DNA of 64,000 bases. Origin: Cetorhinus maximus. Taxonomy: Eukaryota. The DNA is taken from the NCBI RefSeq assembly GCF_964194155.1, contig NC_135886.1, forward strand, positions 9,052,001 to 9,116,000, in the 5' to 3' direction. The position numbers and the translations under genes were made by a program. Below, one piece after another: positions 1 to 63,391 of this stretch. The notes below the pieces were generated by a model. It was not told where the DNA came from. It saw only the letters and a program-made list of their open reading frames with translations, and did not search any database. Numbering within the stretch: the stretch's first letter is position 1; each line of letters opens with the position of its first letter.

Positions 1-1234
1 TGGAGCAAGCAAAAACCCAAGAGAAAGATGCTTAAATTAATTGTGTGATTCTTTTTCCATTTACTCGAACACTCTTCATAAAGTTATGGGAGATGGGAAA
101 AGCCATTTGACTGGAAAGGGAAAGTCATGTAGTCAAACCTACTGGAATGTACCCGACCAAGATTGGCAACACTGATCTATTGGGATATCAGAATTCCAAG
201 ATAGCCTGGTCTAATGAACTAAAACACCCTGTACCTCATTCAGCCAAGGAATGCTAAATTCTATTAGACATGACTGTCTCAAGCCAGTCTCCAGTAGCCA
301 AATCCACTTCACATTTACAGTCGGCAACATGAGAACATAAGGGAACATAAGAACAGAAAGAATGGGAGCAGGAGTAGGCCATAAGATTCCTCGAGCCTGC
401 TCCACAAAAACGTAGAAAAGCTTCAATTTCTAACTAACGTCCCATCTATTAAGACCAGTCCAAAGTGTTAAAATTTACTCTCTGTCTTAAAAGGAAATGG
501 GCATGTTCAAATTAAAATACTATCAGGTGCTGAACCTGGCCTTAAGTAGCTGCTACACTGTCAACAAAGAACAGCCAAGTATCTCTCTTAATAAAGTAAG
601 TATTTATTTTCAACCAGCTTAATATGGACAGATCTATGAACTTCTTCATGTGTGGAGCTTCCCCCAAGATTATAGCAGGGGGCACAGTTTATTTTACATA
701 GAAAATAGGAGCGGGAGTAGGTCATTTGGCCCTTTGAACCTGCTCCACCATTCAATATGATCATAGCTGATCCTCTATCTCAACACCATACTCTCGCTCT
801 CTTCCCATACCCCTTGATGCCTTTAGAGTCTAGAAATCTATCTATTTCCTGTGGAGACTTGGCCACCTGTGGTAGAGAATTCCATAGGATCTTTAGAGGT
901 TTGTGTTGACATTTGGGGCCAAGATGTTAAGTGCAAAGTCTGTTTCTCGGTTACCCTGCTTGCTATCTCTGGTCATCAAGGGGTTACCTGGATTGTCAAG
1001 CCAGGTGTTTTCCCTTCCAATGTCCACTCCTTCTCCCATTGGTAGACCCATAGAAAAGTTATGGTGCAGAAAGAGGCCATTCAGCCCATCATGTCTGCGC
1101 CAGCTAAAAAGAGGAAACAGAAACTAGCCGCTTATTTTAACCCCATTTTTTTATTAGCAGCACTTCACCACTCAACGTGGCTCTGATTGAGGCTTGAAGC
1201 TACATTCATCCCAAACACCAAGCATAACCTCCAC

Positions 1235-3182: not shown

Positions 3183-4544
3183 ACAGATGATGATAGCAAG
3201 GCAATCCAAAACATCAAACTGGAGCCATCCAGCGTCCAAGACCGAGACAGCAGATCAGGATATAGAGATGAAAACACACAGAACGAGGAGGTTACCAAGG
3301 TGGGAGGAAGCAATTGTGACCAAAGGGAGAGGCTGGGCTGCAGCAGGGGCTTGTTGATCAGTGATGAGCTCCTTTTCAGAGATTCCATTACCTCAGACGA
3401 ATGTAGCGACTCTGGCTTCTACAGCGTCAGTCTCAGAGATTATGAGAGGTTTCAGAAGGTTCTGGAAAGGAAGTGTCGACAGTACGCTAGCAGAAGCAAA
3501 TCTGAGCTGGGCCGAAAGGCACCAACAGAGGAGGAGACCAAGAGCGGATGGAAAAACAGTCCCACAAATGCATTTGATAGACCACAGGAGTGTGGAGAAG
3601 ATGATGGGTTTAAGAACTGCAAGACAGATCAATATACTAAGTTGACAGAAAGACCTCCGGTTTGGGGTCAGCCGAAAAGGCCTCAAACTTGCTCCATCAG
3701 CAACGATTGCTATCACAGGCAGACAGCATTATCTGAAGATAGATTAAAGAACTTCCAACAAGACAATACCATTAGCCCTCTCAAAAGTTTTTCAGGCAAA
3801 GCTCAGCATTCTTTATCTGATCCAGTGTCTGATGCACCCAATGGGGGAGATACCTGCACAGCTAATAACACCCGTGTGGGGGAAAACATTGAGGGGAAGA
3901 AAGAGAAGAAGAAAGCTGGACATGAATCATCAGTCAGACGATATAACCATGACTCACGCACTTCAAGTCCAGGATCCATCCACATACCCCAACATGCACG
4001 GCACTATCAGAGCTACATGAGACTGGTGCAGCATAAAACTGCAGTGGAGTGTAACGAGAGTCTCTCAGATACTGGCAAAGGCGGTAGAGAAATGCCTGGC
4101 TTAATGTCAAGGCTGGAAGAGCATGGAACCTGCTTCACCCCCACCAGGAAGCAGTTGCGAGACCGACTCCTCAGAGACCGCGCGGTGAAGATCAGCGAAG
4201 AACGGAACAGCATGACCACCGACGATGAAACCTTGAGTGAGGTGAAGATGGGAAGGTATTGGAACAAGGCAGAGAGGAGGCAGCACTGGACACTGGCAAA
4301 AGAGAAGAGACAGAGGAGAGAGGTGATGATGCAAAGCAGGCTGGAGGTGGTGAAGGAAAGCACGGAAGACAGCGGAAGAACACAATCCAATATTATTGAA
4401 CTCAGCCAGAGGAAAGTGAGCAGCAAAAGAAATAAAAAGGTTTTTGACAACTGGGTGACCATTCAGGAACTGTTGACACATGGTTCACGATCTGCTGATG
4501 GCAGAATGGTCTACAGTCCCCTCCTCTCTGTCACTACTGTATAG
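3183..4544 (+). CDS. Terminal coding exon of a PDZRN3/PDZRN4/PDZD4 (LNX3/4/5) family protein, divergent paralogue
   Basis: Acceptor ttggattttag|ACA at 3182/3183 opens a frame continuous with ORF 3300-4544. Family motifs present: ERFQKVLERKC, IPQHARHYQSYMRLVQHKTAVE, RDRLLRDRAVKISEER..MTTDD..SEVKMGRYW..ERRQH, FDNWVTIQELLTHG, and the C-terminal class I PDZ-binding motif LLSVTTV*. Confidence 0.9.
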   Translation, partial: TDDDSKAIQNIKLEPSSVQDRDSRSGYRDENTQNEEVTKVGGSNCDQRERLGCSRGLLISDELLFRDSITSDECSDSGFYSVSLRDYERFQKVLERKCRQYASRSKSELGRKAPTEEETKSGWKNSPTNAFDRPQECGEDDGFKNCKTDQYTKLTERPPVWGQPKRPQTCSISNDCYHRQTALSEDRLKNFQQDNTISPLKSFSGKAQHSLSDPVSDAPNGGDTCTANNTRVGENIEGKKEKKKAGHESSVRRYNHDSRTSSPGSIHIPQHARHYQSYMRLVQHKTAVECNESLSDTGKGGREMPGLMSRLEEHGTCFTPTRKQLRDRLLRDRAVKISEERNSMTTDDETLSEVKMGRYWNKAERRQHWTLAKEKRQRREVMMQSRLEVVKESTEDSGRTQSNIIELSQRKVSSKRNKKVFDNWVTIQELLTHGSRSADGRMVYSPLLSVTTV

Positions 4545-9835: not shown

Positions 9836-10174
9836 TCACTTATTTGTCATACATAAAAATATGGCTCCAAAACCGAAAGCCAAACTTCCTCCTATTGCCA
9901 AACCGATGGCAATCACTCGAATGGCCATGTTTGCGCTTTTAAATAAGTCCTTTACTTTATCCCAGAAGGATTTCCCCTTCTTCTTTGCCACTGGGTTTCC
10001 TTGAAGGATTTCCATCTCCTCCTTTTGCTCAGATGACAGCACTTCGTAATAGTTCAGCTGCACCAGGTTTTCAGGGATGATTCGGACTCCAATTAGCACT
10101 CGCTTGACAACTTGCATCGTTTTTGAGTTCTGCACTTGGCACATATATGTCCCAGCATGCTTCTCTTTGGCGTT
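9836..10174 (-). CDS. TMEM81: TMEM81 coding exon 2 (Ig F strand, transmembrane helix, stop)
   Basis: C-rich tract then ataaag|AAC, a phase-0 acceptor. Encodes HAGTYMCQV (Ig G-x-Y-x-C), VKRVLIGVRIIPENLVQLNY and the TM segment VIAIGLAIGGSLAFGFGAIFL. Spliced product is 154+112=266 aa. Confidence 0.9.
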   Translation of the reverse strand, partial: NAKEKHAGTYMCQVQNSKTMQVVKRVLIGVRIIPENLVQLNYYEVLSSEQKEEMEILQGNPVAKKKGKSFWDKVKDLFKSANMAIRVIAIGLAIGGSLAFGFGAIFLCMTNK

Positions 10175-10732
10175 CTTTATGGGCGGAAGTGGGGGGGAGG
10201 GGGAGGGGGAGAGAGAACGGTGGGCCCATGTTGTCAATATTAGGCATTACACAAAACATTCCAAATACAGAGACAGCACTTAAAAACATGACTGCTTCGC
10301 ATCTAAGGAAACAAAATAAGGGCAATCTGCTGAATAAGACACACTCGCCATCTTGTACTAATTTCTGTGAAAATTAGAAAATTATGGCTTTTGCTCTGAG
10401 ATTTGCTTTGCCGGTTATGAAGACATATGCAAAGAGCATACCACATTCGCTGCTCCAGAGCACGGACCACAGATGTCGTGGGGGTTGGAGGAGGGGTAGG
10501 GTTCAGGTGGGGGGAAATTAAAAGGATCAGATTTTTGGTCTCTGACTTAGATTTGAAGGAACATCTATTCTGCCATTCAGAAAAATACTCTGTCCTGTCC
10601 AAAATCAGACAGTTAAATCACATACTGGTTTTAAATGGTAGTTAAGCATTGGTGACTTGAATCCCTCCATTGAGAGATGACCATGCAAACTTGCAGGACA
10701 TTAAAGTTATTGCAGCTCACCTGTGGCTCATT

Positions 10733-11535
10733 TATCATGAAGAGATTTTAATGTGCATATTATTGGAAATTATTTTTAAATTGGTCTTGTAGTGTGGTCT
10801 GTGTGTGGTTTAATTGGATTAAAGCCAGCTAGTCTAGGTGCTTTGATGTATATTAGAGATGGTAATTAGGTAAACATAACGGTAGAAGCTAAAGAGTACA
10901 TTTGCTTTTGTTGAATAAACCATTCAAAAGAATGGGTAAAAATCTTGCGCCTAGCTAGGGGACACCAAGCAATGTTTATATTACTAATTAAATTAGGGTG
11001 GAATGAAAGGATTATTGTTAGGAGAGTAAAATTTAAAAACCTAGTAATACAATGGAAAATTTATATTCAAAGGGAAAGCCAGGTATAAACCAAGAGGAGT
11101 TTGTGTATGAGAGTCAGAGGTATGTAAGATCAAACCAGCTTGTAAGCCCTACAACTGTCTGCAAAGGGACCAAATTGCAAGGGAGCTCATTTTGAATTTG
11201 TAAGGCCAAATGTGCTTTGCCTGGTGTCTGTTTAAAGTCTATGGGTTATTGTTGCCTTGGTGAAGATTTACCTGGGAGTGATTAATTTGGAGGTTTCTTT
11301 AAAAGTTATTACGGTAGTCATTTGTAGTCATGTATGTGTTTAATTTGTTGTTAAATTAATAAATGTTTAATTTAGTTTTATATTAAAAAAAAACCTCTTC
11401 AGGCTTGGTGGTTTTATTCCTGAATTCAGAGCTGCATGTCAAACATACCAATTGAAAATATAGGTTATGACAGTTATTCAAGTTTCCCTCTGGGATTCAA
11501 ACAACTCAGCCTTTACCAACTGCTGCGTCATAACA
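10733..11535 (+). mobile_element. Solo LTR-like element in the TMEM81 intron
   Basis: TATCATGA...TCATAACA termini, ctcat direct repeat on both flanks, internal TATAAA (about 11084) and AATAAA (about 11358). Confidence 0.6.
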
Positions 11536-11919
11536 CTCATGTTGTTGAGGTTTCTGTTTCTCCAACACAAGTTTCAACCAGGAGCAGAAGTCTTTTATAA
11601 TGGGTCGGAAACAAGTTTATCATAACCACTTTGACTGAACAATGGAAAGTTTGGGAGATTGTGAATAAATACAGCAGCCTCCTCCTTTTCCCTTCATCAT
11701 CTCCTTTGCCCCTTTCAGCTAATGCTGGGATCTGCTGACTAGGGGGTTGGGGGGTGAAATTGCCCTACACCAGCACAAAACAGGTTGTAGTAAGTCAGCA
11801 GCCAACTTTTCATGAAGGCTGATATTCTTACCGCTGAAGTTCACTGAACACTTAAAATCTTTTTGGGGATCTGTTTCTTTGTCTCGCTGTTGCTTTTACT
11901 TGGTTTAAACTTAAAAAGG

Positions 11920-12310
11920 ACAAAGCAGCCCGCTTGATCAGCACCCCATCCACCACCTTAAACATTCACTCCCTCCACCAGTGGCAGCAGTGTGCACCAT
12001 CTACAACATGCACTGCAGCAACTCACCAAGGCTCCTTTGACAGTACTTTCCAAACCCCGGGCCTCTACCATCTAGAAGGACAAGGACAGCAGGTGCATGG
12101 GAACATCACCACCTGCAAGTTCCCCTCCAGGCCACACGCTATCCTGACTTGGAAATATATCATTCTCCCTTCAGGTTCGCTGGGTCAAAATCCTGGAACT
12201 CCCTTCCTTACAGCACTGTGGGTGGACAGCAATGGTTAGAGAAGGTGGCTTACCAGCACCTTCTCAAGGGCAATTAGGATTGGGAAACAAATTCTGGCCT
12301 CGCCAACAAT
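11920..12310 (+). mobile_element. HER1-like (CR1-group) LINE 3' fragment
   Basis: Shares the caagttcccctcc...cttctcaagggcaattagg 3' block with the other copies. Confidence 0.7.
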
Positions 12311-13126
12311 GTTCATAAGTAACCAAGTTTGTTAGAAATAGCTTCATCTCTGGAAGAGTAACATTAAATGTGAGAAGTGGCTTTAAGCTAAAGTTGGTAA
12401 CAGGTTAATACTGTCCACCAACCAAAATGTAAAACTCAACATATTTCCCCCCTTTAAGATACAAAGACCTCTCATGAACCTTGGGACAGCAACATTATAG
12501 ATCATCTCTTCGTTATACTCAAATTCTTGATAGAGAACAAAAACAATGACTACTTAAGTCACATGATACCGTTGAGCCAGAATATTTGGGACAAAGAATT
12601 TCCTAATGTAGTCAGCCTCAAGGTACATTCTGAGTAGGATGCAGAAGGTAGAATAAGCTTTCAGCTAGCATTAACAATGTCTGACACCAAGTGCTGAGGT
12701 TTATGCTGGGTCAGCACCAACGAAACACATAGGAATGGCACTATTTGTATGGCAACTCTTATTACCCCCCAAAACACTGAATTGGAGATGGGTGAAATGC
12801 TTTAATGATTGGTTTTACCTGCACTTATTTTGCAGGCTCTGAGATATATTCGAGAATGACAGCAAATGGCGCTCAGAGTATACATTCTAATTTCCAGACG
12901 CACAGGAGAAGGGAAGATTCATACACCAGCTGAGTCAATCCTATGAGCAGCTTTTTAATTCTTGAGGATCTCCAATTCAACGATACATAACACTGGCTCA
13001 ACCATAGCCATGTCACTTTCTTCCAGGTCAACTCCCTCTGATCTTGTGAAAGTGACACTGTCAAGTGAATCTCAATGCAACTAAGTGCGCAATCATCCAA
13101 TTTGGCGTGCATTATGAGGGGAATTT

Positions 13127-14060
13127 TTGCTGCAGTTATTCATAGTTAGTTCAGTTCTGGAACACCGAGTACTGTTTGGAGCACTGTACCTTAGAAAGGA
13201 TATATGGGCCTTGGAAGGATTGCAGTGCAGGTTCACCAGAATGTTCCCAGGGCTCCAAGGTTCAAATGATGAGGTGAAATTACAAACTATGTTGGTATTC
13301 CCTGGAATTTAGAAGGTTAAGGGGTGATTAGATTGAGGATTTTTAGGATTTTGAAAGGAATCAACAGGGTTGATAGAGAGAAATTTTTCCCATTTCTGGG
13401 TGAGTCTAAGACATGGCGACATAACCTTAAAATCAGAGCCAGGATATTCAGGAGAAAAGGTGGGAAAACTCTCCCACGAAAAGCAGCAGATTCTAGCTCA
13501 ATTGATCATTTTAAAACGGAGATTAACTGAATGTGTTAGCCAATGGATACAGTGCCAAGGGAAGTAAATGGGGTTCAGGTACAAATCAGGGTAGAATAGT
13601 AAAAGGGTTCAAGGATACAGGTGAACAAATTATTCAAAACAGCATAAGTTAGCAAGCCGATTAAAGATGCAGCAAAGCTCTGGGGTTATTTCCATGGGTA
13701 TAGAATTCAAAAGGAGCAAAGTTTATTTTAGACTTGTAAAGGCCACAATCAGGCCAGAGTGAAGTACTGGAGAGAAGCGTGAGAAAGATTACAAGGATGG
13801 TACCAGAACTGAGAGATAACAGCTATTGGGAAAGATTGAGAAGGTTGGGGCTTTGGTCTTTACGAAAAAACAGAGAAGTGATGTGAAAGAGGCATTTAAA
13901 ATTATGAACGGTTGGACAGAGTAGATGGACAGAGAATGTTTCTATCTTGCAGCAGGATCCATAAGTAAACACAATAGTTACCAATAAATCTAATAGGGAA
14001 GTAAGGAGAAATGTCGTCAGAGTGGTTAGAATGTGAAACAAGCTACCACAGGAAATGGCT
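13127..14060 (+). mobile_element. Two decayed CR1 LINE 3' fragments
   Basis: Peptides LRKDIWALEGLQCRFTRMFPGL and IFRILKGINRVDREKFF, from the CR1 ORF2 C-terminus. Confidence 0.75.
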
Positions 14061-14240
14061 GAGGAGTTTTTTTTTTTATTTTGTTCATTGAATGTGTGCA
14101 TCACTGGCAAGGCCAGCATTTATTGCCCATTCTTAACTTCCCTCGAGCTGGTGTGGAACTGCAGTGTATTCCATCATACTCCTGATATAGTACTCGAATA
14201 TACGTGGATAGAAATTTTAATAAAGCAAATTGATACTCAC

Positions 14241-14702
14241 CTTTACGATAATCATCCATGGTGTTTTTGAACCCTTTAATGGAAAGATTTTGAAGAGGTA
14301 TAGATCCGTTGTCACAATTCCTCTTGCAATCTTCCACACAAAGATGAAATCGGACGACCCTAAAGTTTTGATAGTCGCATCCAAGCAGCTAATGCTCAGG
14401 GTGGCACCCACGGTGGTGGTTTTAGCGATAAGGCCACAGTCTTGGTTGATCAGGCACAAGGCATTTGTCGATGTGCAGTTACTGACGTATCCCTTTTTGC
14501 TCACCTTGCAGTAATACTCAGACCTCCAGCCTAGCCCACAGGTTTTGCTGCAGGGGCTTACACTTACAACTAGGAGTCCAGAGAATGTGACATTCTCCAA
14601 CTCTGGCGGCAGGGTGTTAATGATCTCTTGGCAAGCAGCCAGATGCATCAGGAAAGTAAAAAAGATGAGGACAAGGTAGATACTGGCATGAGGGACCAGC
14701 AT
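14241..14702 (-). CDS. TMEM81: TMEM81 coding exon 1 (signal peptide, Cys-rich hairpin, first part of Ig domain)
   Basis: MLVPHASIYLVLIFFTF signal peptide. CSKTCGLGW..C..C..CL...CG and FVWKIARGIVTTD match the TMEM81 signature (human CTVTCGLGY and FTWRLARGVISTD, recalled). Phase-0 donor AAG|gtgagt at 14241/14240. Adjacent to RBBP5 as in other vertebrates. Confidence 0.92.
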
Positions 14703-14885
14703 TTCTTTAGGGGAAGGGACAGGGAGAGAAGAGGTGGGGGTGGGAAGTGGGGGGTTAAGGCTGTAGACAATCTAATTTTAACAAGTCTTTGTTACATCAA
14801 CCTTCAACACAATGGAGCTTTGAGAACAATGGAACTGAGGTTACATCATGACAACATTGGTAAGGCTGTAGATGCACAAAACAAT

Positions 14886-31017: not shown

Positions 31018-32060
31018 CTAAGGCAAAACAAAGAATGCAGCACATGAAACCACAGACATTTCCCCAAGTTATTAGCTGCTCTATTAACAAGTAGAGAAAG
31101 CAGCTCTCTCCAGCTGTGCTTCCATAAGAAGTGTTACAGCAACAATCATCGAAAGAGAATCTGCCTCACTTAAGACAAAAGGAAAGTGACCGAGGCGGTG
31201 CAGCTAATCAATGAACCAGCGCATTCCAGTCTGAATTCATGAGTGCCCAACTGGAGATTCTTTCTCCCTGGAAGGCATATAGATTTTTTTTTAAAAAACC
31301 TTAAGGCTACAATTCTTGCTAAGGAAACATTCACCGAGCAACAGAAACCATCAAGCTCCTCACCCAAGTGAGGGTAGATTATTAGAAGGCATGACACCAA
31401 TCCAGTACTCAAACTCTCTCCACTTCTGAACCTCAAACTTCCCAGAAGTTGCTGGATAACAATCAGGAGGGAGAACCCTTCTTCGCTCCCCCATTCTAGC
31501 ACAAGGCAATTAGGCCAATTCCAGTTCCCCTATTGACACCCTATGATGATCTAATCTGAATTCAGGACTTTCTGATCTTACTATCTATTTTACAAATTGG
31601 TGCATTCACATTTGCTAGCACGGTGCATAATCACAAGGTGTATCCAAGAATGCAGTAGTGCATTAATGATAGAGCAGTATTTCTACATTGGAGAAGCATT
31701 CACTTTCTTTGCATGATAAAGATTACTGCCCATTGTAAACAGCCTGGAACTCCCAGACACATAAGGAAGCACCTTCACCACGCAGATTGCAACGGTTTAA
31801 AGCAGAAGCTCACCACAACCCTTTCAAGACAACAAGGGATCAGCAATAAAAGCCAGCCTTGCTAGCATCGTTATGTCCCAAGAATGAACTGAAAATAAAA
31901 TTCTATTAGAAGGTCAGGAGGAGGAAGAGGACAATTCGAAGTTGAAACAAGGTTTCTCAAACACTTCTGACAATGTTATGTAACAGCTCAGAGGAATTCC
32001 CCAGCTTCGAATCTAAGTTGATCCATTTCCCCATTAAAGAGCTTATATTCAGTTATCTAC

Positions 32061-32130
32061 CTGCTACAGAAAGCAGCAATAGGGTCTACGGACGTGACAT
32101 CAACCTCTTCATCCTCTGCCGCATCGCCAC
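32061..32130 (-). CDS. RBBP5: RBBP5 exon 11 (WDR5-binding VDV motif)
   Basis: GDAAEDEEVDVTSVDPIAAFCS, 70 nt. Confidence 0.95.
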
Positions 32131-33909
32131 CTGGAAGTGTTTCATACAGAAATAGGTCAAAGTTTAATAACAAAGCAGAGATGCGCAGTTTAGTAACTAA
32201 GTATACAGGGGATGAGGTAGTGCAGGGTAGCACTTATTGGTTCGGTAGCACAATCTACCCATGAAAGAAGCAGAGTCCTTCATGGCCCAAAGCAGTATTA
32301 TCCATATATCTTCTATGGTCTGGCAACACAGTAAGAACTTAAAATGGTCTTCAGTGAAATTTATTAAGATCATTGCTTTGTCTTTGAAGAAAGAAAATAG
32401 ATATTTCCCAGAGGAATCGATATTCCTATGGAGATTATCTAGTCTACATTGTTCTCCTGGATGCTTGATGTATTGATAATGGCATCAGCAATCCCCTCAT
32501 GTTCTTGAGAGGTTAATGCATGCAAGCCTGAAGACTCACGTCAGACCCTCAGACTCTTCTTAAAACCAAGATGACAAGAGCTAAGCTACTTGAAAGGGAA
32601 TTGAGTCAACAAGATCACTAGAAAGACGGGACCTGGACAGTGTCCAACTGAACTGCAGAACTGCTAACTAACAAATGCCTGAATAGTGAGAAAACAAATT
32701 TATTTGATTCATACATGTGAAACAACCTTGGAGTCACAGGAAAACCAATGAAGGTTTCCCAGTCTGGACTAGCAGGGAGGCTCATGGAAAAGCTCTGCCA
32801 GGCAGCATATCAAAGACTCTGTGTTTTCCAGAGTCTTTTAAATAAAATTTTGGACAATTTAAGTATGGTATTGTCAAGTGCTGTACTACTAGTTTCTTGC
32901 TGCATCCTTTTACTTAAGAATTAATTAAATTCTTTTTAAAAACGTGATTATTAACTTCACTCTGAAAAATATATCTGACTATGTAGTGTTTCCAGAGCTT
33001 TTTAATGTTAGCAGGTGCTCTTATGGTGGGCAACTCATGCACATCTTTAGTGCCCAATGTGCTGCCCCATTCGGAGCATGTGTAAAATTGTGTGTTTCAG
33101 ATCTTGAGTCAAGCAGCTCTGCTTGTGTAAGGTGCCTTGTACTGTCAACAGGATGTATAGCTTGAATTGTAACTGTACCAGGTGGCAAGAGATTGATGGG
33201 GGGGTGGTGGGTGGTCACATGGACAACTCCAAGCAACGTATCACATTGTCTGAGCTGTGTGATCATTCAGATGTGCTTGCAGGATTGCATGTGCCTGGGA
33301 CTTTTACAAACAGCCAAAAATATGGAATGAGAAAAAACAATTTCAGCTCATCTAGTCTATTCTTCCCACACATCACATACCCCAAAGTATCAACCCCAAC
33401 TACTTCCGATTTGAGGAAAAGAATAAAGGACTTGGATTTATATTGTGTCTTCAAGATGTCGCAAAGCATTTCACGGTCAATTGATTACTTCTGAGTGGAG
33501 TTATTGTTACGTGGGTAAACAGAAACCAATTTATGCACAGCAACTGCTCAAAAATAGCAAATGAGATGGATGACTGATTCATTCATTCATTAGTGACTTT
33601 GGATTAAAGGGTTAGTGTTGACCAAGACACCAGCAGAGCTCTTTGCTTCTCTGCAAATTGTGCCAACAGAACCGACAGGGCCTCAAGTTTAACATCTCAA
33701 CTAAAAGTCAAGCACTCCCCTCAGTACTATAATGAGGTGTTAACATGGATTACACACACAAGTTGTGGTGTGCAGCTTAAAGCCAAAACTTCGTCTCTCA
33801 GGCTGTGAGAGATTTAACAAGTGAGCCAAACTCTCCAAAATTCCAAAATCAACAAAAATGGCAGGGCAATCAAATCTTCTAATTCTACATTAGATTTCTC
33901 TTACCCACT

Positions 33910-34350
33910 CAATGCGTCAATACGTTGGCTTGGTGGTAGCTCTCTAACCTCGGAGTCGGAAAGCTGCGAGTTCAAGTCCTACTCCAGAGGCTTGAGCACA
34001 TAATCTAGGCTGACAGTTTAGCACAGTACTGAAGGAGTGCTGAGCTATCCAAGGTACAGTCTTTTGGAATAGACATTAAACTGAGGCCCTGTCTCCTCTC
34101 TCAGGTCGGGGTAAAAGAATCCAATACCACCTGATGAACAGGAGAGATGGACTAAGATTCATCCCTCTACAACATCACTGAAACACACGGCCTGCTTATT
34201 ACCTGACTGCAGTTTCTGGGACCTTGCTGTGCGTAAATTAGGTGGCAAATTTCCTACAATACAACACAGTGACTACACTTCAAAAGTATTCTGTTTGTTA
34301 TAAAGAGCTTCGAGGTATCCTGGCACTATATAATTGAAAGTCCTTCTTTT
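33910..34350 (+). mobile_element. Near full-length Deu-domain SINE
   Basis: tRNA-like head with B box gagttcaagtcc, then the Deu block ggaccttgctgtgcgtaaatt and the tail. Confidence 0.65.
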
Positions 34351-34557
34351 AGTGCCTCTAGATTATCTCATCACACTTCATGTTACCTTACTAGCAACTT
34401 CTTCAAGAACAGCATTAGCAGTGATTTGAAAGCAGATACTCTAGGATATAATGGTAAAACAGACAAACAGCATTAACACCACAATCTTCCAGTTGGACCT
34501 GCAGTGCGGTCAGTAATACTTGCCTGCCAAAACTAAAGCAGGGCCAATATTGCTTAC

Positions 34558-34675
34558 CGGTCTGTTCTGGCTCGCTCTTATCTTCATCTTCAATGTCAAA
34601 CTCAGATTCTCTCTCTTCATATTCAACATTCTCGTCTAACTCTTTGAAGTCTGGAGCAAATGCACTCCAGTTTTC
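34558..34675 (-). CDS. RBBP5: RBBP5 exon 10 (activation segment / D/E box region)
   Basis: ENWSAFAPDFKELDENVEYEERESEFDIEDEDKSEPEQT, 118 nt. Confidence 0.95.
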
Positions 34676-35791
34676 CTAAGAGAGAAGCAACCATCTTAGT
34701 CAAACAGGCTCCACCTGGAATACCAAGCTCCAAATATCCAAAACTGAAATAAAGGCTCACCTTCTTAGGAGCGAAAAGGAAGACTGGCAGGTCTATTTGG
34801 AAAAAATAGGTGAGTGATGGGAGGGAACAAGGGAAAGGAGGGGGAGAGAAGGAAACATCTGCTCCAGAGCTGGCCATTGCAGTCTTTTAATTGTGGGATA
34901 GACTCATCCCATTTTCTAGTCAGTCACTTCCAAAAAAGTTTACCCTTATTCCCACTCAAACCATTTTCACTGGTCACATTGCAAAGCAGAGATTAGTCTT
35001 ACAGAAAGCTCCCAAACACCTTAATCATTCCAGAATTAGTCTGCCAGCAAAAACGTACTTCAGCTAGAAGGAAAGAATCTCTCTCCTCCTCACCACTCAT
35101 TCTCCCCATCGCCCACCTACCATCCCATCTCTTTCAACTTCAACTGGGACTACGAATACAGGGATTGCCTACAAGGGGAGCCTGCCTTCAGTTTATTGCG
35201 TCACCCATTTCCTCTCTTCAGCCCCCAATCTCAGCCAGGACTGTCTAGGGAGACAGTGAACTGATAAGAAGGCCACTGAGTTATAAGTTAACTCAACTGT
35301 AAAATTGATCTTTGATGTTCCTCACTGGAAAAGAATAAAACAAGAATCAGAGGCCATATCAGACCCAGCAAATCCCACCTTCAGCTTTCAGACACTCCAC
35401 ACTGATTAGGTTTGGCTGTCGGCTGGTATTTGATTTTTCCCAAGCCATTCAGTCAAAGAATGAAAGTTGCCACAGAGTGAGCCAACAAGATATCTGGTAG
35501 AACAACACGTACATTAAATATGTATTTTTGTGTATTAACATGCATACACACAAATAATTTGCACAGCTGCTTTTTTCACTGCCCGTCTTATTGAAAACCC
35601 TGGTTCAGGCTGGGGTTCTGGAGCCGTGAGACATCCTCTCCGCAATGACCATACCTCACATGGGAGTCGAGACACCAAGTGTGGCCCACACAGTTGGATA
35701 CAATTCACCCTTATCATCTGGCAATAGTTATTCAGATTGGTCACCCTACAGATCCTGGCTCCAAGAAGCTAAAATCAACCCTGGCACTTAC

Positions 35792-35863
35792 CACTTGATT
35801 CTGAGCCCAAATGGACACGACTCCACTGGATATTGAGGCTATGATCGGTCGGACTGGGTGCCA
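35792..35863 (-). CDS. RBBP5: RBBP5 exon 9
   Basis: WHPVRPIIASISSGVVSIWAQNQV, 72 nt. Confidence 0.95.
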
Positions 35864-37002
35864 CTAAGAGGAAATTTTAAAGGGAAGAGAAAAGAAGTTA
35901 ACCTTCATCTCAATTGCAACCATGTCTGAGTTTGAGTGGAATAAGATCTATTCCAAAAATGAATTAAAGAGTCAAATATTCAATGGGAAGCTATAATTTT
36001 AAACATGTTTACAGTACACACTGCCTAGCACTGTTGAAACACATATTGGGAATCTGACTGGAGTTGTCACTGGCCAAAGCATAGAGGGCTTGAAGTTATT
36101 CGAAGTTCCCTCAGCTCAGAAGCAACAGATCTCTTAATCTACTTTCCACAACCAAAGTTAGCTCCTCGAAAAGGTCACATGCAGTTAACCAATATTGAAA
36201 CGTTTAGCTTTATTCCCACTGAGCCAATAGGGTTAGAGGAAGTTGGGTGGGAGGAAACCTGTCAGGATCATAAACCTTAGTCTGAGGTAAAGCAGGGAAT
36301 GAGAGACTGACAAGGGTCGAGGTTCAGCGAGGTGCAGAAGTTTGGGAATGAGAGAGAACTTTTAAGTGCTAGGAGGATCAAGGAACAGGTTAAGGCTGAA
36401 GTGCTGCTGTGTCAGGAACTTGCTGACAATTGTTAGCTGAGTTACAATTTACCTCTTTTTAGATACACTGGTATGTGAATGTGGGGAACAAAAAGCCAAA
36501 ATTCCCCATTCCCCATAATCTGAATGTTTCCCAATTTTCTGCAAGAGAAACAACCAGGAAGCTTGTGCACGGGGTTTCAGAAGCACGTGACAAAAGGATC
36601 AAGGATGGCACAAGCGTTCTGGGTTTGAGTGCAGGCATTACAAGGGCTGACGATTAACCAAATAATCTCACAGGAAATGGCCAGAATCCCCAGCCAAAAT
36701 GTGGAGTATATAAATAAAGTCAAGTTAGAAAAAGATTTGAGGGACAATTTCAGGACACTACACGAATTAAGGGATTTGGCAGGACAGTGGAGTTGAGATA
36801 GATGATCAGAAATGATCTGTTGAATAGTAGAGCAGACTACTGCTGATGGGTCATATGGCTTAATCCTGCTCCTATTTCATTTGATCTTAAACATGGGAGC
36901 ATCCTTACGGTCACTCAACTCGAATCAGGAGACCTCAGTAAGTTGGAGTCTGCCAGCGATTAAGAATGCAACAAAACCAATTAGTCACAAATAGTCACTT
37001 AC

Positions 37003-37156
37003 CGCTACATCCAACAACAGCTCTCCTCGGGTGCCATGTAGAATCTTCACCAGGTTTCCAATGCTCTTCTCCCAGATGTAAAGTGCATGCTGCCGTGCCG
37101 AACCAGCGCAAATGTACTCCCCATCACCAGAAAAACAACATTTCTTCCAGGGTGTC
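37003..37156 (-). CDS. RBBP5: RBBP5 exon 8
   Basis: [51 protein letters not shown], 154 nt. Confidence 0.95.
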
Positions 37157-37692
37157 CTGAGATTAAAATAAACCACCAGGTCACATATTAAAAATAACCA
37201 ACACAAAAATGGAAAGAATCTCTTTAACATGTATACCAGAATGAGATGTAAACATAAGTTATAGATTATACATCACGCTCACCGTACTAATGCCTTGTGA
37301 TTTCTATAAACAAAAAGATTCAACTTATTGAATAAAAACAAGAGGTCTCTGCATTTTTCTATAATTAAACATAAGCAAAAGAAGCAATTTTGAAAGGTGC
37401 CATATCTGACGAGAATTCTTCGATGGAAAGCCATTAAAGAACAAGCATTCTTCCATTTTTCATTAATCTCATGCTCAAATGAATCAACCAAATTTAAAAA
37501 ATGAAGATCTGACACCATCAGGAACTTCAAGTCAGTCTCCTCAACCCCAACAATTTTCAATATGAAAATGGTCAAGAACTATAGCAACACATCCTGTTAA
37601 CTACACTGCTGTATCTATATTATACATACAGTTATGCTGCTGTTAACTAGTCGATTATGCATCTCCAGTAGGGAGTTTAGTTAAGTACCTAC

Positions 37693-37812
37693 CTGTTCAC
37701 CAAGTCCTGCAGCTTCTGCATTGGTTCAGGCTCCCCATCGCGCCCACATGTTAAAATCTCCCGGCCATCGTACACTCGAATTATTCTGTCTGCTGTGTTT
37801 ATAAGGAAACAG
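37693..37812 (-). CDS. RBBP5: RBBP5 exon 7
   Basis: CFLINTADRIIRVYDGREILTCGRDGEPEPMQKLQDLVN, 120 nt. Confidence 0.95.
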
Positions 37813-39239
37813 CTACCGAGGTAAAGACAATAGTTTAGAGAAGGAGATTATGCCACAACATTGAGGCAGAAAGGAACTAATCAATGGCTCTCACTAGCAT
37901 GGAAATAAAATGCAGTGAGATCTACTTAATGTTTGTTGGTTAGTGTTTAAAATCAAATTGAACCGTGCACAATAACATGCTTGTGGATGAAGTTTCTCAG
38001 TTGTTTCATGTGGCTTTAAGTCAGGAGAGAAAAGAGGAATCACTAAAGCAGCTAAATGAATATTTTGGGGGACAGGGTAGGGGTAAATGTTAGATCAATT
38101 TTACTGTATTCAATAGGGCAGACTGAAATACATTTTCCAAACTTCATTGCAAAATAAACAATCTTTATGTCTGCATTTTTTTTAAAACCTCAAAAATATA
38201 TGGAAAGGAAAGGTAAGAACAATGCTTTTGGTGTTTTTGAAGTTGAAGAATACTGTATGGATGACTTACGAATTTTTTTTGCATTAAGAATGAGTATTAA
38301 AGGTGCATAACAAAGAGGGTATTTTACCCTCTGTCTCAGTGCATCTCCCACATCAGATACCCTGGTCACATTTTGGGGGAAACTTCTAATGTGTCACAAG
38401 CCACGAGCCATGTTCTGTTACTCTCTCATCCTCTTCTCGCCAAAGTCATTTAGCATTAAGACTCTTACAGCCAGCGTGGTTAGTCTGAGATGGCTAAAAC
38501 CCAGGTTCCAGGGGACAGGGATGTGTGGTAACCTAAAACACCAACCAAATCCCCGGTACATTCAACATGTAATCTACTTCTCAAATGAAAAAGGACAGGT
38601 CCCTCTAAACATAAAAAAAGGGGTGGAACATTGTTCTACACTTAATTACATGAACTGATATAATAGCAGTGTAGCTCCCCCGGCAGTTAAGGTAGAGAGT
38701 AGCTGAGCTTAAATAAGAACAGAAAATTCTGGAAACACTCAGCAAGTCAGGCTGCATCAGGTGAAAGGTCATCAACCTGAAATGTTAACTCTGTTTCTGT
38801 CTCCACAGATGCCGCTAGACATGCTGACTATTTCCAGCATTTTCTGTTTTTATTTCATGTGAGAGCTTACCTGGGCTTGCTGAACCTCCCCCTGCCAGCC
38901 CACACAAATTCAACAGCCATCGGGAAAAGGTGCCAGGGAGTTCCCGACACCAACAAGCCTGCGCTCAAGCAAGGAATCAACTCATTTAGGGGGAATGAGG
39001 AAACAGAGCTGGCACGAGGAGGAAATAAAAGCACAAATGAGAGGATTCTGCAGGGCAATGTAAGTAAAGTTTATATGATGTGATATCTCTCCAGTGATCC
39101 CATTCTGATCATTGCCCAATCACTCAATACACTGAGGCGTATCAGAGGTGTATCAGATTCACACAGACATATGCCATTGATTGAAAATAAAGCCCATTCT
39201 AAACTTCCTGCGAAATCTAAGAAACAGTAAATGCCTCAC

Positions 39240-39349
39240 CTCCCTTTCCTCGCAAATTCGATAGATTTAATAGCGGTGGTGTTACTGGTGCCGGTCGTGA
39301 CTCGGAATGAAGCTACCAGCTCCTGTGTATCAGTCTTTAGAACCAAGAT
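39240..39349 (-). CDS. RBBP5: RBBP5 exon 6
   Basis: ILVLKTDTQELVASFRVTTGTSNTTAIKSIEFARKG, 110 nt. Confidence 0.95.
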
Positions 39350-39469
39350 CTGAAAATACAAGGCACGTTTTAGCATTATCAACAGATGTATGAAAATTGA
39401 GTAACGATGCAGGAGTCAGCACGGTGACAAAGTGTCACGGCTCTCTCTGCTCATTGTACATGAATCACA

Positions 39470-40110
39470 TAAATTTAGTAAGCAGGTACAGCAAGTGGCA
39501 AATGGAATGTTGGTGTTTATTGCAAGAGGAACTGAATATAAAAGTAGGGAAGTTTTACTACAGCTATACAGGGCCTCGGTGAGTATTGCGTGCAGATTTG
39601 GTCCCTTAATTTAAAAAAAAGACTTCCTTTAGAAGGAGTTCAGGGAAGGTTCACTGCACTCGTTCTGGGATGAAGGAATTACCTTATGAAGAAAGGTTGA
39701 ACAGGTTAGGCCTATACCCATTGAAGTTTCGAAGAATGAGAGGTGAACTTATTGAAAGGGCCTGATAGGGTGGACACCCGGAGGGCGTTTCCTTGTGTGG
39801 GGGAGGCTAAAACTAGGGGACATAGTTTAAAAATAAGAGGTCTCCCTTTTAAGGCAGAGATGAGGAGAAACTTTTTCTCCTAAAGGGTTGCTTGTGTGTG
39901 GAATTCTCTTCCCCAGAAAGCAGTGGAGGCTGGGTCTTTGAATTTAGTCAAGGCAGAGTTAGACAGATTTTTGTGAGGCAAGGGAGTCAAGGATTATGGG
40001 AGGCAGATAGGAAAGTGGAGCTGAGACCACAACCAGGTCAGCCATGATCTTACTGTATGGTGGAGCTGACTCAAAGGGCAAATGGCCGACTCATGCTCCT
40101 ATGTTCTCAT
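39470..40110 (+). mobile_element. CR1 LINE 3' fragment
   Basis: KQVQQVANGMLVFIARGTEYKSREVLLQLYR and a CR1 3' UTR ending ctcctatgttc. Confidence 0.8.
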
Positions 40111-40890
40111 GTTGTTGTGGTAGGCAATATCACCAGTGATAAATAGAAAAACTGCAAACACAAGGCATGTCAGCCAACTGTAAAAACAAAAGACGGGACC
40201 AACTCTGTTCTGACAAAAGGTCTAAACCCAAACGCCAAGAGCTTTTCACTTCAGGAGGAGGACATGCCCATTCTCAATAACAGCATCACAACTAGGCTCG
40301 GAGCCTATGGGGTAGGGAAATAAATTTGACAAAACTATCCGGGATTTCCAATCCTGACCGTCACTGGCACATTCTAGGAAATGCACAGGGACAGGATAAG
40401 GATCAAGCCTTCTGAGTGTCTATTTCTCTCTCCAATATTGGTAAATAGGCAGTCATTGTTCACCCTTTCACATCACTGAAGGATACACCTAGGGCACATC
40501 ACTGGAGGACTTCTGGCATCTGTGGAACTGTACCCCAGCCACAAGGAGAGTGGTAAAGGCTCAGCAATGGGGGAAAAAAAAGAGTTGGATTTGATTACAT
40601 CAAAATCCTTAATGGTATGGAGACCACCGTACATCAATAGATACAGCCAGTTGTGACAAAACATTGGATCTTTATGACTTTAGCCCCTATATGCTTTACT
40701 AGGTGACATTGAAGAAAGAGAAAAATAGACCTTTTAAAAAAAAGATTCGTTTATTTAATTAAAAAAAAGATTAAGGTTGGGGAAAATTAACTTTCCCCTT
40801 TACAAATACATTGAGAATCGACACATCTGATCTGCCACCGACAAAACTGGAAAATTGAAGCAAAAGAAAAAACAAGGCTTTAATGCTCAC

Positions 40891-41053
40891 CTTTCCCTTG
40901 GCATTCCCTGTGTAAATATACTCTCCCCGTCGGTCAAAAGATGCCACGACATTAAGATCAGAATCATCATCTACAGGTAGAACTACGTGCTTAGAGTCAG
41001 AGAGAGTTAACAACACCGGAGCACATTTCATTGGGCAGACCAGGACCCTGTTC
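40891..41053 (-). CDS. RBBP5: RBBP5 exon 5
   Basis: NRVLVCPMKCAPVLLTLSDSKHVVLPVDDDSDLNVVASFDRRGEYIYTGNAKGK, 163 nt. Confidence 0.95.
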
Positions 41054-42317
41054 CTGTTGACACAGAGCAAATACAAATAAGTAACAAATACATCAACTAA
41101 GGGCAAGCCCTTCATTATTAAACAGAGCTAACCCATGATTAGCCCTCAGAAACCAAGTAGGAGATACCCAACACACACAAAGCTATTGAAGGTAATGTCA
41201 TATGTATTCATATCATTGGTGTAAGGGATGATTATAAACTACTTTCATTCCAGGAGACCAGTTAACATCTTCAGATATTAAATACCACTTATTGGACAAT
41301 AGGAGCTGGCAATGGTTCTGCTGTTATTTATACCTCCTCTAGAGCCATCTTTTGTATCTTTACATCTCCTTTTTGCCTTGCACCATCATCTCATTTGCTC
41401 CTACCTGGACCCAACCACAGACCTTTCTCACTGTTCTTTCCTCTGCCCCTTTAGCCCTGCCTCTGTATTTGGCAATGAACAATTAAATCTTTAACCTCCT
41501 CTAGTTCTGATCATAGACCTGAAACCTTAACTCTGTTTCTCTCTTCACAGATGCTGCCTGACCTGCTGAGTATTTCCAGCACCTTTTGGTTTCCAAATCT
41601 GATTTTCAGCATCCGCAATATTTTGTTTTTGACCTGCAGTAATTAAGTTTGGCTTCTGCGATTCCTGGCACAAAGTTTCTAATAATGTCGAAGAAGCTGA
41701 ACAGAGGCCAGGCACGTCACTGCTGGGTGACAGTAAGCTCAGAGCAGCAATGGTGGAGGTTCCCACTTACTGTCCTCCATAAAGGAATAGCGTGCAAAAG
41801 AATCAGGAAATAAACTTCCCTTTAAAATATGCAAGGGAACAAAAAAAAAGGAAACCATTGACTTAAAGCTCTCTGTATAATTTGCGTTCATCACTAGTTT
41901 GGCCTGGGGAATGGTGGACTTTCTGATGCTCACTCAGAAGCTAAGGGCTGTTAAACTTCCCAACAATCTATGCCAATAGAGCAACTCAGCCACAAGACAG
42001 CCTTCTAGTGTGCGAAAGGGACACTTCCCATAACTGCCACCCCGTGGTTCAATTTAAGTGCAAATCAGGGTCACGTTGGTCCCATGCCCACCCGAGACTG
42101 GGCTAAGATTGCCCAACCTCATGTCAGGTAGGAAACAGTCCCTTTAAAATTCCTAAGTTTTCACATTTCAGAGAGGAACATAAATAGAAAAATTAGAAAG
42201 GCGTTTCACCCATCTTACTTTCATAGTCCTAAGGAAGTCTTTTGGACCGGAGATCTGAAATTTTCTACTTTCCAGGCAATTTCATTGTAAATCCATCCAA
42301 ACTCTTGAAATACTTAC

Positions 42318-42458
42318 TGATCTCTGGGATGGAACTGCACTTTGAGAACTGGTGAGGGAAAACGGAACCTCTGGTCACAGTCTCCGGACAGAACATCCCA
42401 CAGTGACACGATGTTATCAGTTGAAGCACTGACTAGTTTATGCCCATCTCGACTCCAA
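42318..42458 (-). CDS. RBBP5: RBBP5 exon 4
   Basis: WSRDGHKLVSASTDNIVSLWDVLSGDCDQRFRFPSPVLKVQFHPRD, 141 nt, AG/GT bounded. Confidence 0.95.
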
Positions 42459-42499
42459 CTGTAAAACAGAAGAAAAATAAGCGATTTTTTTTTTTAAAT

Positions 42500-42732
42500 G
42501 TATTCTTCCAGTAAGCATAGCATCGCTGGCTGGGCCAGCATTTGTTGCCCATCCCTAATTGCCCTGGAGAAGGCGGTGGTGAGCTGCCTTCTTGAACCAC
42601 TGCAGTCCAGGTGGTGTAGGTACACCCACAGTGCTGTTAGAGAGGGAGTTCCAGGATTTTGAACCAGCGACAGTAGAGCAACAGCAATATATTTCCAATT
42701 CAGAATGGTGTGGGGCTTGGAGGGCAACTTGC
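42500..42732 (-). mobile_element. HER1-like LINE 3' end next to the RBBP5 exon 4 acceptor
   Basis: Same tail block as the other HER1-like copies. Confidence 0.7.
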
Positions 42733-43339
42733 AAAGTTAATTGTGTAAAATTATCGAGAAGATAACGGACTAACATTTTGTAAGATGTGTAGTTTTCCTT
42801 TATAATTTTAATGTTTGCCATTGGATTCTCATGAATTGTAGTCACAATGAAGAATACCGAAACACTCGCACAAATCTATTAAAATCAATTCTTTGTCAGC
42901 TAAAGGGGAAAGGTCAAAATGAGTGCTTTTGGTTTAATAAATGGAGCCACATGCAACTCTGCCCATAACTAAAGAAACGAACCCAAAGAGAAATGACATT
43001 AAGAGTGCGACAGCCAAGGAGACACATGCATCAAATCTGCTGTGGTAACAAAATTTGATTATTTTTTTTTAAAACTTAAAAAATGTTGCAAATATATAAA
43101 TCAAAACAAAAAGTGTGTTTTCCCTTTTAACAGCAGACAAATCAATGTTTCAAAGTTGCTGAGAATTCCCGCTAAAGGGAAGAGTGGATAATGCAGTAGA
43201 GCTGCTACACTAAGGAGAGGCTCTGCCAAGTGGCAGAGCAAGATTATACACAATCCTGCTGGCTTCTGATATTCAACTTCACTGGTCACAGACCAAGGAT
43301 TTGGGATGAAGGAAGGAGACAAAAGAGGCGATCAGATGT

Positions 43340-43450
43340 CATTCCACTGTAGACCCAAACCTCTTTGGAATACTTACTGATCTAGAGGATGAAACTGACA
43401 TTGAGAACTGATGAGGGAAAACTGGAACGGTGGTGCTGCCCTTCCACTTT
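43340..43450 (-). pseudogene. Decayed partial duplicate of RBBP5 exon 4 (3' half plus donor) inside intron 3
   Basis: gttccagttttccctcatcagttctcaatgtcagtttcatcctctagatca|gtaagtatt aligns by eye to exon 4 gttccgttttccctcaccagttctcaaagtgcagttccatcccagagatca|gtaagtatt. Confidence 0.8.
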
Positions 43451-45376
43451 CTGGTTGGAGGAGAGAAATGCAGATACTCTCAAACAAGTAGCCATGTGGG
43501 AGAACAAATAACAGCTCATCCAAAGGGCAGGGGGGAGGGGGGGAAAATGAGGCGAGGGGCGCTTCTTTGAGCATGTAGCAAATAAGATAGAAAATTGAAG
43601 TCCTTAATACTTCCCATAATCAAGTCCAAATGTGTCATATTCTTAGTGTAAAATTCATGGCACACTGCACTAGTAAGAAACTGAGTTTAAAAATAAGGGA
43701 AGTGTGTGCACTCGTGAGGTATAATCACCAGGGAAGCAGGTGGTTCTATGCATGAATCTCATGGGTCAGCGTTTGGGTCCTGGTTGTTGCTTGTCGACAT
43801 AAAATGACCTTGATGCAAAAAGCAATTGTAGGATCCAGCTGTGGTGTACATCAATTTGGGACTGCAACAGAGCCAAAGGAAGTAGCTCAAGTTTCACAGG
43901 ATAACCTGGATCAGTTGTTGAATGAGGCAGAGAAATGATAAATGAAATTTAAACATTGATGTATGCAGGGTATTGAAGAGTGAACAAGCAGCAAAGGTAT
44001 ACACTCAAGACAACAAATTTCGCATTAAGAGGCTTTGACAGGGAGTGATAGCAGACCCATTACTTACGAGATCAAGACAACGCAAAAGGTGATTTACAAA
44101 GCAAACAGATGCTAGGTGAGCTGGAATCACGCAGCACAAGTGTACAGAGTTCATGATGGTGCTCAGTAATGCATTGGTCAAGCCTCACTTGAAATAGTAA
44201 TGAGCAATTCTGTCACTTCACATCAAAAGGGGCAGATGTGCATTGGAAAATGTGCAGAAACAGTAACATGTCCCAAATATAAATGGTGATGAGCCACAAA
44301 ACAGGCCAGAGAAGGTTACAGAAGAAAGGGAGACCTCACTTAGATATGGAAAGTATTTAACAGTATAGATAGGTGATCATAGAATATTGGATTAAGCTCA
44401 GTCCAAGCCAATAGAATGAGGGGAAATTAACTTAAATTAATCGAAAGTCAATTTTGAAAAACAAATTCTTAACTCACTGGGGGATAAGTGGAATGATCTG
44501 TTTGGTAAGATAGCTTGATGCTAGATTGATTCTTAAGTGTATACTTCATTAATTATTGATGGACGACTGCAACGGGAACTTTGTGTGACAGAATAGAAAA
44601 CATGCGCTATGAAAATGGTTGAACATTGGGGATTTAGATGCAGCTCACTTCTGACTGGGGTTCTGAAACATTAACACCTGAAGGAGAAAAGATAGGTAAT
44701 CGTTCTGCTTTGCATTTCCAGAATTTTGTTTCAGATTTCCAGCATTTCAAGTTTTACCTTTACCAGTGAACACACTACCAGTGATTCTTCCAGAGGCACT
44801 CAAATGTCACCTAGCCTCTACAAAACATGAAACCCAAGGCATGGAATGCATGGCTAGTTACCAGCTTACAAATCAATATGTACATTTCCACTCCCACCAC
44901 TCACCAACAGCAGCAGCACAGACCATGCCCTGATGAAGGCCAGAGTAGGACAACAGTGGGCAAAGTTGGCATGTAGCAGAGCCAAAGGCTGAAAGTTTCT
45001 AACCTTGATTCCCAATTTGTGCAGCTAACCAGTCTCAGCCAAAAACAAAGGAGAATGGGAATTTGGCTATCAGGCCCCTCCCTAACACCTGGGAAATGAA
45101 AAATTGACTCTTTATCTGGAATCTCCCACTGGGAAACATACACTGATAGACAGCTAGCCCTTCCCCACATTCAAACAGCCTGTCAATGCACAGGCTCTAA
45201 ACACATTCACTGGGAGTGATGACCTGAGGATGTAACAGATCACACTTGTGCAACTATACCTCAACATGGAGTCAACACAAATTGGAAGTGGGGAGCTTGC
45301 AAAACATGTTTTTTTTTTAAATATAGAGACACAAGTACATGTACATATACACACACACAAACAGGTAACCAATTAC

Positions 45377-45549
45377 CATAGTGAGCAAACTGGATGGATG
45401 TGTGCGCTGATGATTTTGGCAATACCCCTCGTCAGGAAGTCCCAAATGACGATACGCCCATCGTTGCACCCCACAGCGAGCAGTGTACCCCACCTGTTAA
45501 ACGTACAGGTCAGGGCCATGCTAATACAATCCAGGGTTCCATCCGCCTC
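45377..45549 (-). CDS. RBBP5: RBBP5 exon 3 (WD40)
   Basis: EADGTLDCISMALTCTFNRWGTLLAVGCNDGRIVIWDFLTRGIAKIISAHIHPVCSL, AG/GT bounded, 173 nt. Confidence 0.95.
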
Positions 45550-45599
45550 CTACACAAAAAAAAATTACACTAAATCACATTTCAGAGAACAGCAAGAAC

Positions 45600-46330: not shown

Positions 46331-46624
46331 GTGAGTGTAAGATGCTCGGGAGGAACAGGTGACTTTGGACTTATAGTTCCCAAATCTCTCCACTACTGGG
46401 GGTTTTCCTCGCCTTGTGCCTAGTCTGTTGCAGACTTATTGATGGAGATTAACACCCATGAACAGTCAACACCTCCATTATAGTTGTATAATGTGACCAC
46501 CCGGATGGTAGAAGACGAACTAGATGGCTCCTGGTCTGTATTCATCCAACAATTCCTGTGTTAGGGAGGAATATTAGTCAGGAACCACAACCACTTTCCT
46601 TCAAACATTTCTATGGGATCATTT

Positions 46625-63320: not shown

Positions 63321-63391
63321 AAAGTCAACTCATCTAATCCTGAACCCGGATTGGTGTATTGAACTGTCTTATCTCACCCTTAAAATTCATG

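Follow-up and report, generated by a model that had tools for sequence, protein, structure and literature searches.

A divergent terminal exon of Cetorhinus maximus likely ends an apparently undescribed fourth vertebrate LNX3H gene

Background

Three vertebrate LNX3H genes are named in Flynn et al. 2011, a review from 2020 (PMC7765395) and a preprint from 2026 (10.64898/2026.10.09.757662). PDZRN3 (LNX3) and PDZRN4 (LNX4) encode E3 ligases, and especially their short RING-less isoforms share the segment order, the DSG motif region and the LNX3H helices with the shark gene described here; both also follow a contactin encoded in the same direction. Unlike them, the shark gene has no RING exon, PDZ2, SSAYNT motif or hairpin, and its clade evolves much faster, with 68 % identity between two sharks versus 87-93 % for PDZRN3/4 in elasmobranch pairs, which are different species pairs. 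PDZD4 (LNX5, also PDZK4 or PDZRN4L) resembles the clade in being RING-less, in beginning with half of PDZ1 and in carrying an LNX3H domain, three phosphosites and a TTV tail. However, it has an intact PDZ2, usually retains SSAYNT (18/22) and the hairpin (13/22), and forms a separate clade at a separate locus.

Like the clade, C. elegans PZLS-1 and Drosophila Slip1 are RING-less LNX3H proteins, and PZLS-1 is described as working in Wnt-Ror-Dishevelled polarity without a RING (10.64898/2026.10.09.757662). The hairpin is present and required in PZLS-1, which also has the SSAYNT region; the clade is without both. LNX2b provides a precedent for an LNX-family paralogue that occurs in non-mammalian vertebrates and was lost in eutherians (PMC3162930), but it belongs to the LNX1/2 branch, with a RING and four PDZ domains and no LNX3H.

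The window analysed here is a stretch of 64,000 nucleotides from the 3.99-Gb assembly of Cetorhinus maximus (C8:9052001-9116000, where C8 is the contig NC_135886.1); positions given without a contig refer to this window. The original prediction, made from the sequence alone, had proposed that one exon in it belongs to a fourth PDZRN3/PDZRN4/PDZD4 copy.

Results

The terminal coding exon, exon 5 of the gene model, lies at 3183..4544 (+) and consists of a long divergent linker and an LNX3H domain. It had been predicted as an intact 453-codon exon with a VTTV end, and this is borne out by the open reading frame, which contains no stops and closes with VTTV-stop, by a canonical AG acceptor directly 5' of position 3183, and by homology. 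The PDZ-binding motif VTTV (4530..4541, +) is recognised from the sequence and is invariant across a 13-row orthologue alignment. PDZRN3 proteins matched the ORF with E about 1e-54, and a homologue search over 794 aa yielded no close orthologue, with a top identity of 55 % (both among the best 120 of 785 matches). The closest relative of the exon is a Heptranchias protein with 68 % identity over the whole exon (E 1e-182, best 120 of 710). Its last 189 residues show 56 % identity to two further exons in this assembly, one each on C23 and C6. The LNX3H domain aligns with that of the same genome's PDZRN4 at 59 % identity over 142 of 149 aa (E 4e-46), with the N-terminal hairpin missing. The absence of Pfam matches (0) for the ORF is expected since LNX3H had no Pfam model (PMC3162930). 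By its LNX3H domain and TTV tail, the predicted protein belongs to the LNX3H branch of the LNX/PDZRN family (Flynn et al. 2011).

The exon closes a predicted gene of five exons and 603 aa, whose upstream exons were located with the Heptranchias orthologue as query. All five exons have canonical splice sites and compatible phases, and the 603 codons contain no internal stops. Exons 1 to 3 lie upstream of the window: exon 1 (C8:9015257-9015292) encodes an N-terminus common to the newt, turtle, alligator and ostrich orthologues, exon 2 (C8:9047088-9047296) the second half of PDZ1, and exon 3 (C8:9050722-9050824) a linker. Exon 4 (494..595, +) comprises 34 codons with AG/GT borders in phase 0 and is a degenerate remnant of the first PDZ2 exon; it matches Heptranchias at 67 % in tblastn and aligns with the PDZ2 start of PDZRN3, PDZRN4 and PDZD4. 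A stop inside exon 4 suggested by tblastn was rejected, as it sits in the intron before the acceptor. Exon 1, 32 kb further upstream, was the top of 290 ATG-to-GT candidates (27.5 versus 10.75) and ranked third of about 524,000 positions by score alone. Ray-finned orthologues begin with an MGC-type first exon, and a dead exon of this type lies between exons 1 and 2 (C8:9022522-9022590; score 38 versus 27.8 for the next), in which GTG stands in place of ATG and CT in place of the GT donor. The sequence at C8:9039202 is similar to the N-terminus of the Heptranchias model, as a candidate only. Two runs guessed to be RNA contained short pieces only, including an intronic one, with no splice joint listed for the gene, and are neutral on expression. 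We consider it very probable that the five-exon gene is expressed.

RING and PDZ exons, whose retention upstream had been raised as a point to check, are largely gone: there is no RING and no whole PDZ, and the PDZ content of the shark gene model is the second half of PDZ1 and the remnant of the first PDZ2 exon. In a genome-wide search in which 150 of 264 candidates were scored, the locus yielded no RING exon; those of the PDZRN type occurred only on C23 and C6. A local HMM search of 264 gap-free kb gave no RING at E under 0.8 and recovered only the half-PDZ1 exon. PDZ2 exons were detected genome-wide on C23, C6 and the scaffold C3576, and none at the C8 locus. The Pfam PDZ cut-off was passed by none of 14 orthologue proteins versus all three controls. 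Six aligned sequences, the shark model plus three orthologues from tetrapods and two from ray-finned fish, share one deletion, which removes the later PDZ2 segments together with the linker that leads to the terminal exon. This supports the orthology of these proteins independently of branch lengths. Without a RING there is no ubiquitination by the mechanism of the family, and the shark protein therefore cannot be a PDZRN-type ligase. As judged from the predicted proteins, its architecture is the most reduced among the vertebrate members examined.

The two motif replacements quoted in the original prediction are both present: RDSRSGYRDENTQN occupies residues 21-34 of the ORF and LMSRLEEHGTCFTPTRKQ residues 307-324, where the genome's two paralogous exons have KDSG(L/V)GRTDES and EWKVKIRSDGTRYITKRP. 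In the segment that stands in place of the WKVK beta-hairpin (4101..4154, +), AlphaFold2 predicted coil without strands, mostly with a pLDDT under 50, versus a two-strand hairpin at the matching place of the same genome's PDZRN4 (block pLDDT 93); since both models had a pTM of about 0.22, only local secondary structure was used. On the clade profile, 57 of 472 proteins had their best score, two of which (P0399, P0413) were later placed elsewhere. Motifs were counted in the clade-class proteins of at least 430 aa (n=50, including P0413 and many redundant ones). The hairpin pattern occurred in 0/50 of these, versus 282/284 of the PDZRN3/4 class, 13/22 of the PDZD4 class and 41/44 of the invertebrate class; the corresponding counts for the SSAYNT pattern were 0/50, 280/284, 18/22 and 20/44. 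Hence the predicted loss of the WKVK motif holds for this gene, but its description as near-invariant does not, the pattern being absent in 9/22 PDZD4-class and two invertebrate-type proteins. Likewise, the strong divergence stands, but far more than one motif is gone and the gene also occurs outside sharks. The WKVK hairpin is also lost or eroded, apparently independently, in the PDZD4-type proteins P0348, P0368, P0374, P0382, P0400, P0402, P0403 and P0441, of which P0348, P0368 and P0441 fall inside PDZD4 in the tree. P0399 and P0413, marginal in score, were rejected as clade members by the tree and, for P0413, by the presence of PDZ2; they are invertebrate-type LNX3H proteins without a hairpin that group with P0420 and not with the vertebrate clade.

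Selection was estimated by simple counting from one species pair, with one related-species contig (depth 5.9) that spans the terminal exon, shows 31 listed differences there and is free of indels and stops. Codons 265-453 carry 8 synonymous and 2 nonsynonymous differences (pN/pS 0.07-0.09, p<0.001), and codons 1-264 carry 6 and 15 (pN/pS 0.7-1.0). The C-terminal 189 codons are thus under purifying selection, the LNX3H helices being the selected part, and the linker is near neutral. A dN/dS analysis across elasmobranchs had been proposed; for this one pair, constraint was confirmed for the C-terminus but not for the linker. The motif TTDDETLS (4215..4238, +) contains the residues matching T955, T956 and S962 of mouse Pdzrn3 (sites from 10.1101/2020.06.22.163790). 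All three are kept in the named shark and tetrapod members, and the third is lost in most teleost members.

In the main tree of the terminal exon (48 rows, mixture model), all 15 clade rows form one branch with a support of 100/99, which contains shark, tetrapod and ray-finned subgroups, and PDZD4 (100/100), PDZRN3 (97/97) and PDZRN4 (99/99) form one branch each. As the original prediction had expected of a fourth copy, the maximum-likelihood tree places the protein inside none of the three. The exons on C23 and C6 read as PDZRN4 and PDZRN3, respectively, and group with them. PDZD4 is represented by five upstream exons on the 23.7-kb scaffold C3576 (4667-18768, -; loci L055-L056), a small GC-rich scaffold, with 70-87 % identity to Hemiscyllium PDZD4. 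Its terminal exon was found neither in searches of the assembly nor in the 20 kb examined of C3576, and PDZD4 was not found beside the fourth L1-family exon in C931:1-90000. PDZD4-type proteins occur in six other elasmobranch species, and in elasmobranchs the PDZD4 records frequently come from tiny scaffolds, so that apparent shark losses of the block may be assembly gaps. With the PDZD4 exons on C3576, all four genes coexist in this genome, which settles the question of separate PDZRN3, PDZRN4 and PDZD4 genes in the affirmative.

The 100/99 support for a branch with shark, tetrapod and ray-finned members dates the clade before the split of cartilaginous and bony vertebrates. Its cartilaginous members are the studied shark and Heptranchias. 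Among the matches listed, the tetrapod members are turtles of eight species, Alligator, Struthio and Pleurodeles, and the ray-finned members are Erpetoichthys, Polypterus, Polyodon, Megalops, Electrophorus, Denticeps, Scleropages, salmonids, Muraenolepis and Knipowitschia. About a dozen clade rows carry no species name, and orthologue records are mostly labelled 'uncharacterized' or '-like'. Teleost members were absent from the best 120 of 1013 matches in one protein search. No mammal, squamate, frog or neognath bird was among the named members (best 120 of 785, 710 and 1013; 150 of 462). For mammals, in which the gene had been predicted to be lost, this absence, seen in protein listings, is weak evidence of a loss. 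The unnamed 73-aa fragment P0426 is 81 % identical to the ostrich orthologue and ends in TTLS instead of TTV, which may be a sign that the gene is decaying in another bird.

To our knowledge, no PDZRN gene lies among NFASC, CNTN2, TMEM81 and RBBP5 in human. All four genes are located at human 1q32.1 (PMC11532416). In the shark, contactin exons lie upstream on the same strand, of which two were tested and both had Contactin-2 as best PDB match; further upstream, the sole PDB match of an L1-family tail exon was a neurofascin construct, which is weak as a paralogue test. These exons agree with the expectation of CNTN2 and NFASC upstream of the window. RBBP5 follows downstream on the minus strand (exons mapped at about 32060-49650, identified by sequence match; E 3e-31). 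Between them, a TMEM81-like gene (9836-14771, -) has a signal peptide, TSP-like and Ig segments and a C-terminal membrane-type segment; the label is a lead only (Atlas 0.79; Pfam matches below cut-off; no PDB support). The proposed slot between CNTN2 and TMEM81 is supported by CNTN2 upstream and RBBP5 downstream, with TMEM81 itself as a lead. LINE-type reverse transcriptase fragments at 61584-63373 (-) were judged by eye from ORF translations.

Within this shark genome, which is the basis of the synteny analysis, an L1-family 3' exon, a contactin Ig1 exon and a PDZRN terminal exon recur in this order, all on a single strand, at three loci: C8 (8.619, 8.908 and 9.056 Mb, +), C23 (68.21, 67.80 and 66.74 Mb, -) and C6 (55.27, 53.46 and 51.82 Mb, -). 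The contactin exon of C8 resembles its C23 counterpart (69 %) more than that of C6 (57 %), which would lead one to expect PDZRN4 as the sister of the shark gene. A fourth L1-family tail exon (locus L028, C931:87641-87799, -) lies on a 116-kb scaffold of largely simple repeats, which is not linked to the PDZD4 scaffold C3576 in the assembly; the fourth block is fragmented. The L1CAM and CNTN families belong to a published genome-duplication paralogon on human chromosomes 1, 3, 7/12 and X (PMC3826523), and L1CAM also to that of PMC8851675. PDZRN does not appear in the family table of PMC3826523, and its five supplementary files contain no PDZRN, PDZD4 or LNX. The shark gene thus sits in a paralogous block with conserved neighbours, the L1CAM/CNTN/OTR-VTR paralogon. 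The Polypterus gene model P0443 fuses LAMB3, which we take to lie at human 1q32, to the clade orthologue, implying that the two are neighbours there; this is an indirect hint on the block. In a search for LAMB3, the shark genome has a laminin-type match at C8:19.70 Mb, which is not the best of 15.

Discussion

Our main reading, to which we give a probability of roughly 0.8, is that the exon ends a fourth gene of the family, likely made by genome duplication, whose product is likely a non-enzymatic Dishevelled-binding modulator of Wnt5a-Ror signalling and not a ligase. Its functional part draws on two studied systems. In mouse cells, Wnt5a-induced degradation of Pdzrn3 requires T955, T956 and S962, and the RING-less Lnx5 stays undegraded under Wnt5a (10.1101/2020.06.22.163790). 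For PZLS-1 of C. elegans, localisation and function depend on the beta-sheet and its tryptophan, and activity depends on three S/T residues; the SSAYNT region keeps abundance down, and the requirement for the PDZ-binding motif is partial (10.64898/2026.10.09.757662). The beta-sheet was equated with the WKVK motif from the preprint text and the AlphaFold2 hairpin in shark PDZRN4. The clade is without the localisation and turnover modules (hairpin, SSAYNT) and keeps the activity sites and the tail. Such a protein would most likely be a stable Dishevelled-binding modulator. Tentatively, VTTV would dock on a PDZ domain, either that of Dishevelled or one in the protein's own paralogues, and the kept T-T-S sites would be phosphorylated. 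Because RING and SSAYNT are missing, the protein would escape degradation on Wnt5a signalling, and because the hairpin is missing, it would be poorly polarised. A stable and poorly polarised docking protein would therefore buffer or compete with PDZRN3/PDZRN4 and damp the output. The simplest reading, plausible though short of probable, is accordingly worded as a stable, weakly polarised adaptor that may occupy PDZ domains of Dishevelled or the paralogues and buffer PDZRN3/4.

The most serious alternative accepts the same history and would place the protein outside the Dishevelled pathway, or would have it pair with PDZRN3/4 through its LNX3H helices, in a dominant-negative or scaffolding role. 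The helices are the part under selection, as this explanation would expect. Furthermore, as the hairpin is required in C. elegans and the PDZ-binding motif only partly (10.64898/2026.10.09.757662), a hairpin-less protein may have left the pathway. The invariance of VTTV in 13 orthologues and the conservation of the three phosphosites in named shark and tetrapod members speak against it, and we regard this alternative as somewhat doubtful.

The origin of the gene in the two early whole-genome duplications is highly probable and rests on synteny, since the tree does not fix the sister paralogue. An older or small-scale duplication, whether it preceded the divergence of cyclostomes or copied the cassette as a segment, would fit the 48-row tree, in which the clade falls outside all other vertebrate genes, cyclostomes included (95/87), and it was not rejected by the AU test (p 0.45). 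However, the clade has long branches and the basal placement dissolves in two other trees, so that it is probably due to long-branch attraction. None of five placements of the whole clade was rejected (p 0.27-0.57; all AU values from LG+F+G4 with fast searches, the 5000 replicates having drawn a warning that they were too few), and with the unstable basal position neither a date for the duplication nor a sister paralogue follows from the tree. The vertebrate genes cluster away from the invertebrate rows, and no ((A,B),(C,D)) sister relation stands out among them. The slot of the gene matches those of PDZRN3 and PDZRN4 within the published four-fold paralogon, and the hairpin-less invertebrate-type P0399 and P0413 do not group with the clade, which leaves an older or small-scale duplication improbable.

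Less probable still is a pseudogene in which decay has so far spared the reading frame. The losses of RING, PDZ, hairpin and SSAYNT, the dead MGC exon, the near-neutral linker and the ostrich-like fragment P0426 without a PDZ-binding motif would suit decay, but they are set against 603 codons free of internal stops, canonical splice sites, a C-terminal pN/pS of about 0.08 and open orthologues in sharks, ray-fins and tetrapods. A relocated shark PDZD4 or a shark-specific copy of PDZRN3, PDZRN4 or PDZD4 is largely refuted and has next to no probability left, despite the missing PDZD4 terminal exon and a RING absent as in PDZD4, because the upstream exons of PDZD4, including PDZ2 exons, are on C3576 and the AU test rejects joining the shark gene to shark PDZD4 (p 0.0009), PDZRN4 (p 0.00015) or PDZRN3 (p 2e-7), under the same replicate warning.

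The fourth vertebrate LNX3H paralogue with its new reduced architecture is real and apparently undescribed; its history is well supported, and its mechanism we infer. A literature search that covered few subscription journals, with automated gene-tree databases outside its scope, found no paper on a fourth LNX3H gene. The surprise is limited because hidden shark ohnologues are a familiar type of result and the proteins are already in databases under automatic names.

Nevertheless, a fourth LNX3H gene fills an empty slot in a well-studied paralogon. It is conceivable, if rather unlikely, that the clade has supplied a ligase-dead, PDZ-less and degradation-resistant decoy of the Wnt5a-Ror-Dishevelled-PDZRN pathway since the origin of jawed vertebrates, lost in mammals. 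If true, this decoy would be a natural separation-of-function variant that shows the LNX3H helices without hairpin, RING and PDZ. With the hairpin and SSAYNT gone clade-wide and the phosphosites and tail kept, the role of LNX3H without a ligase is testable in fish, and an overlooked relative may be present behind fish pdzrn3/4 knockouts.
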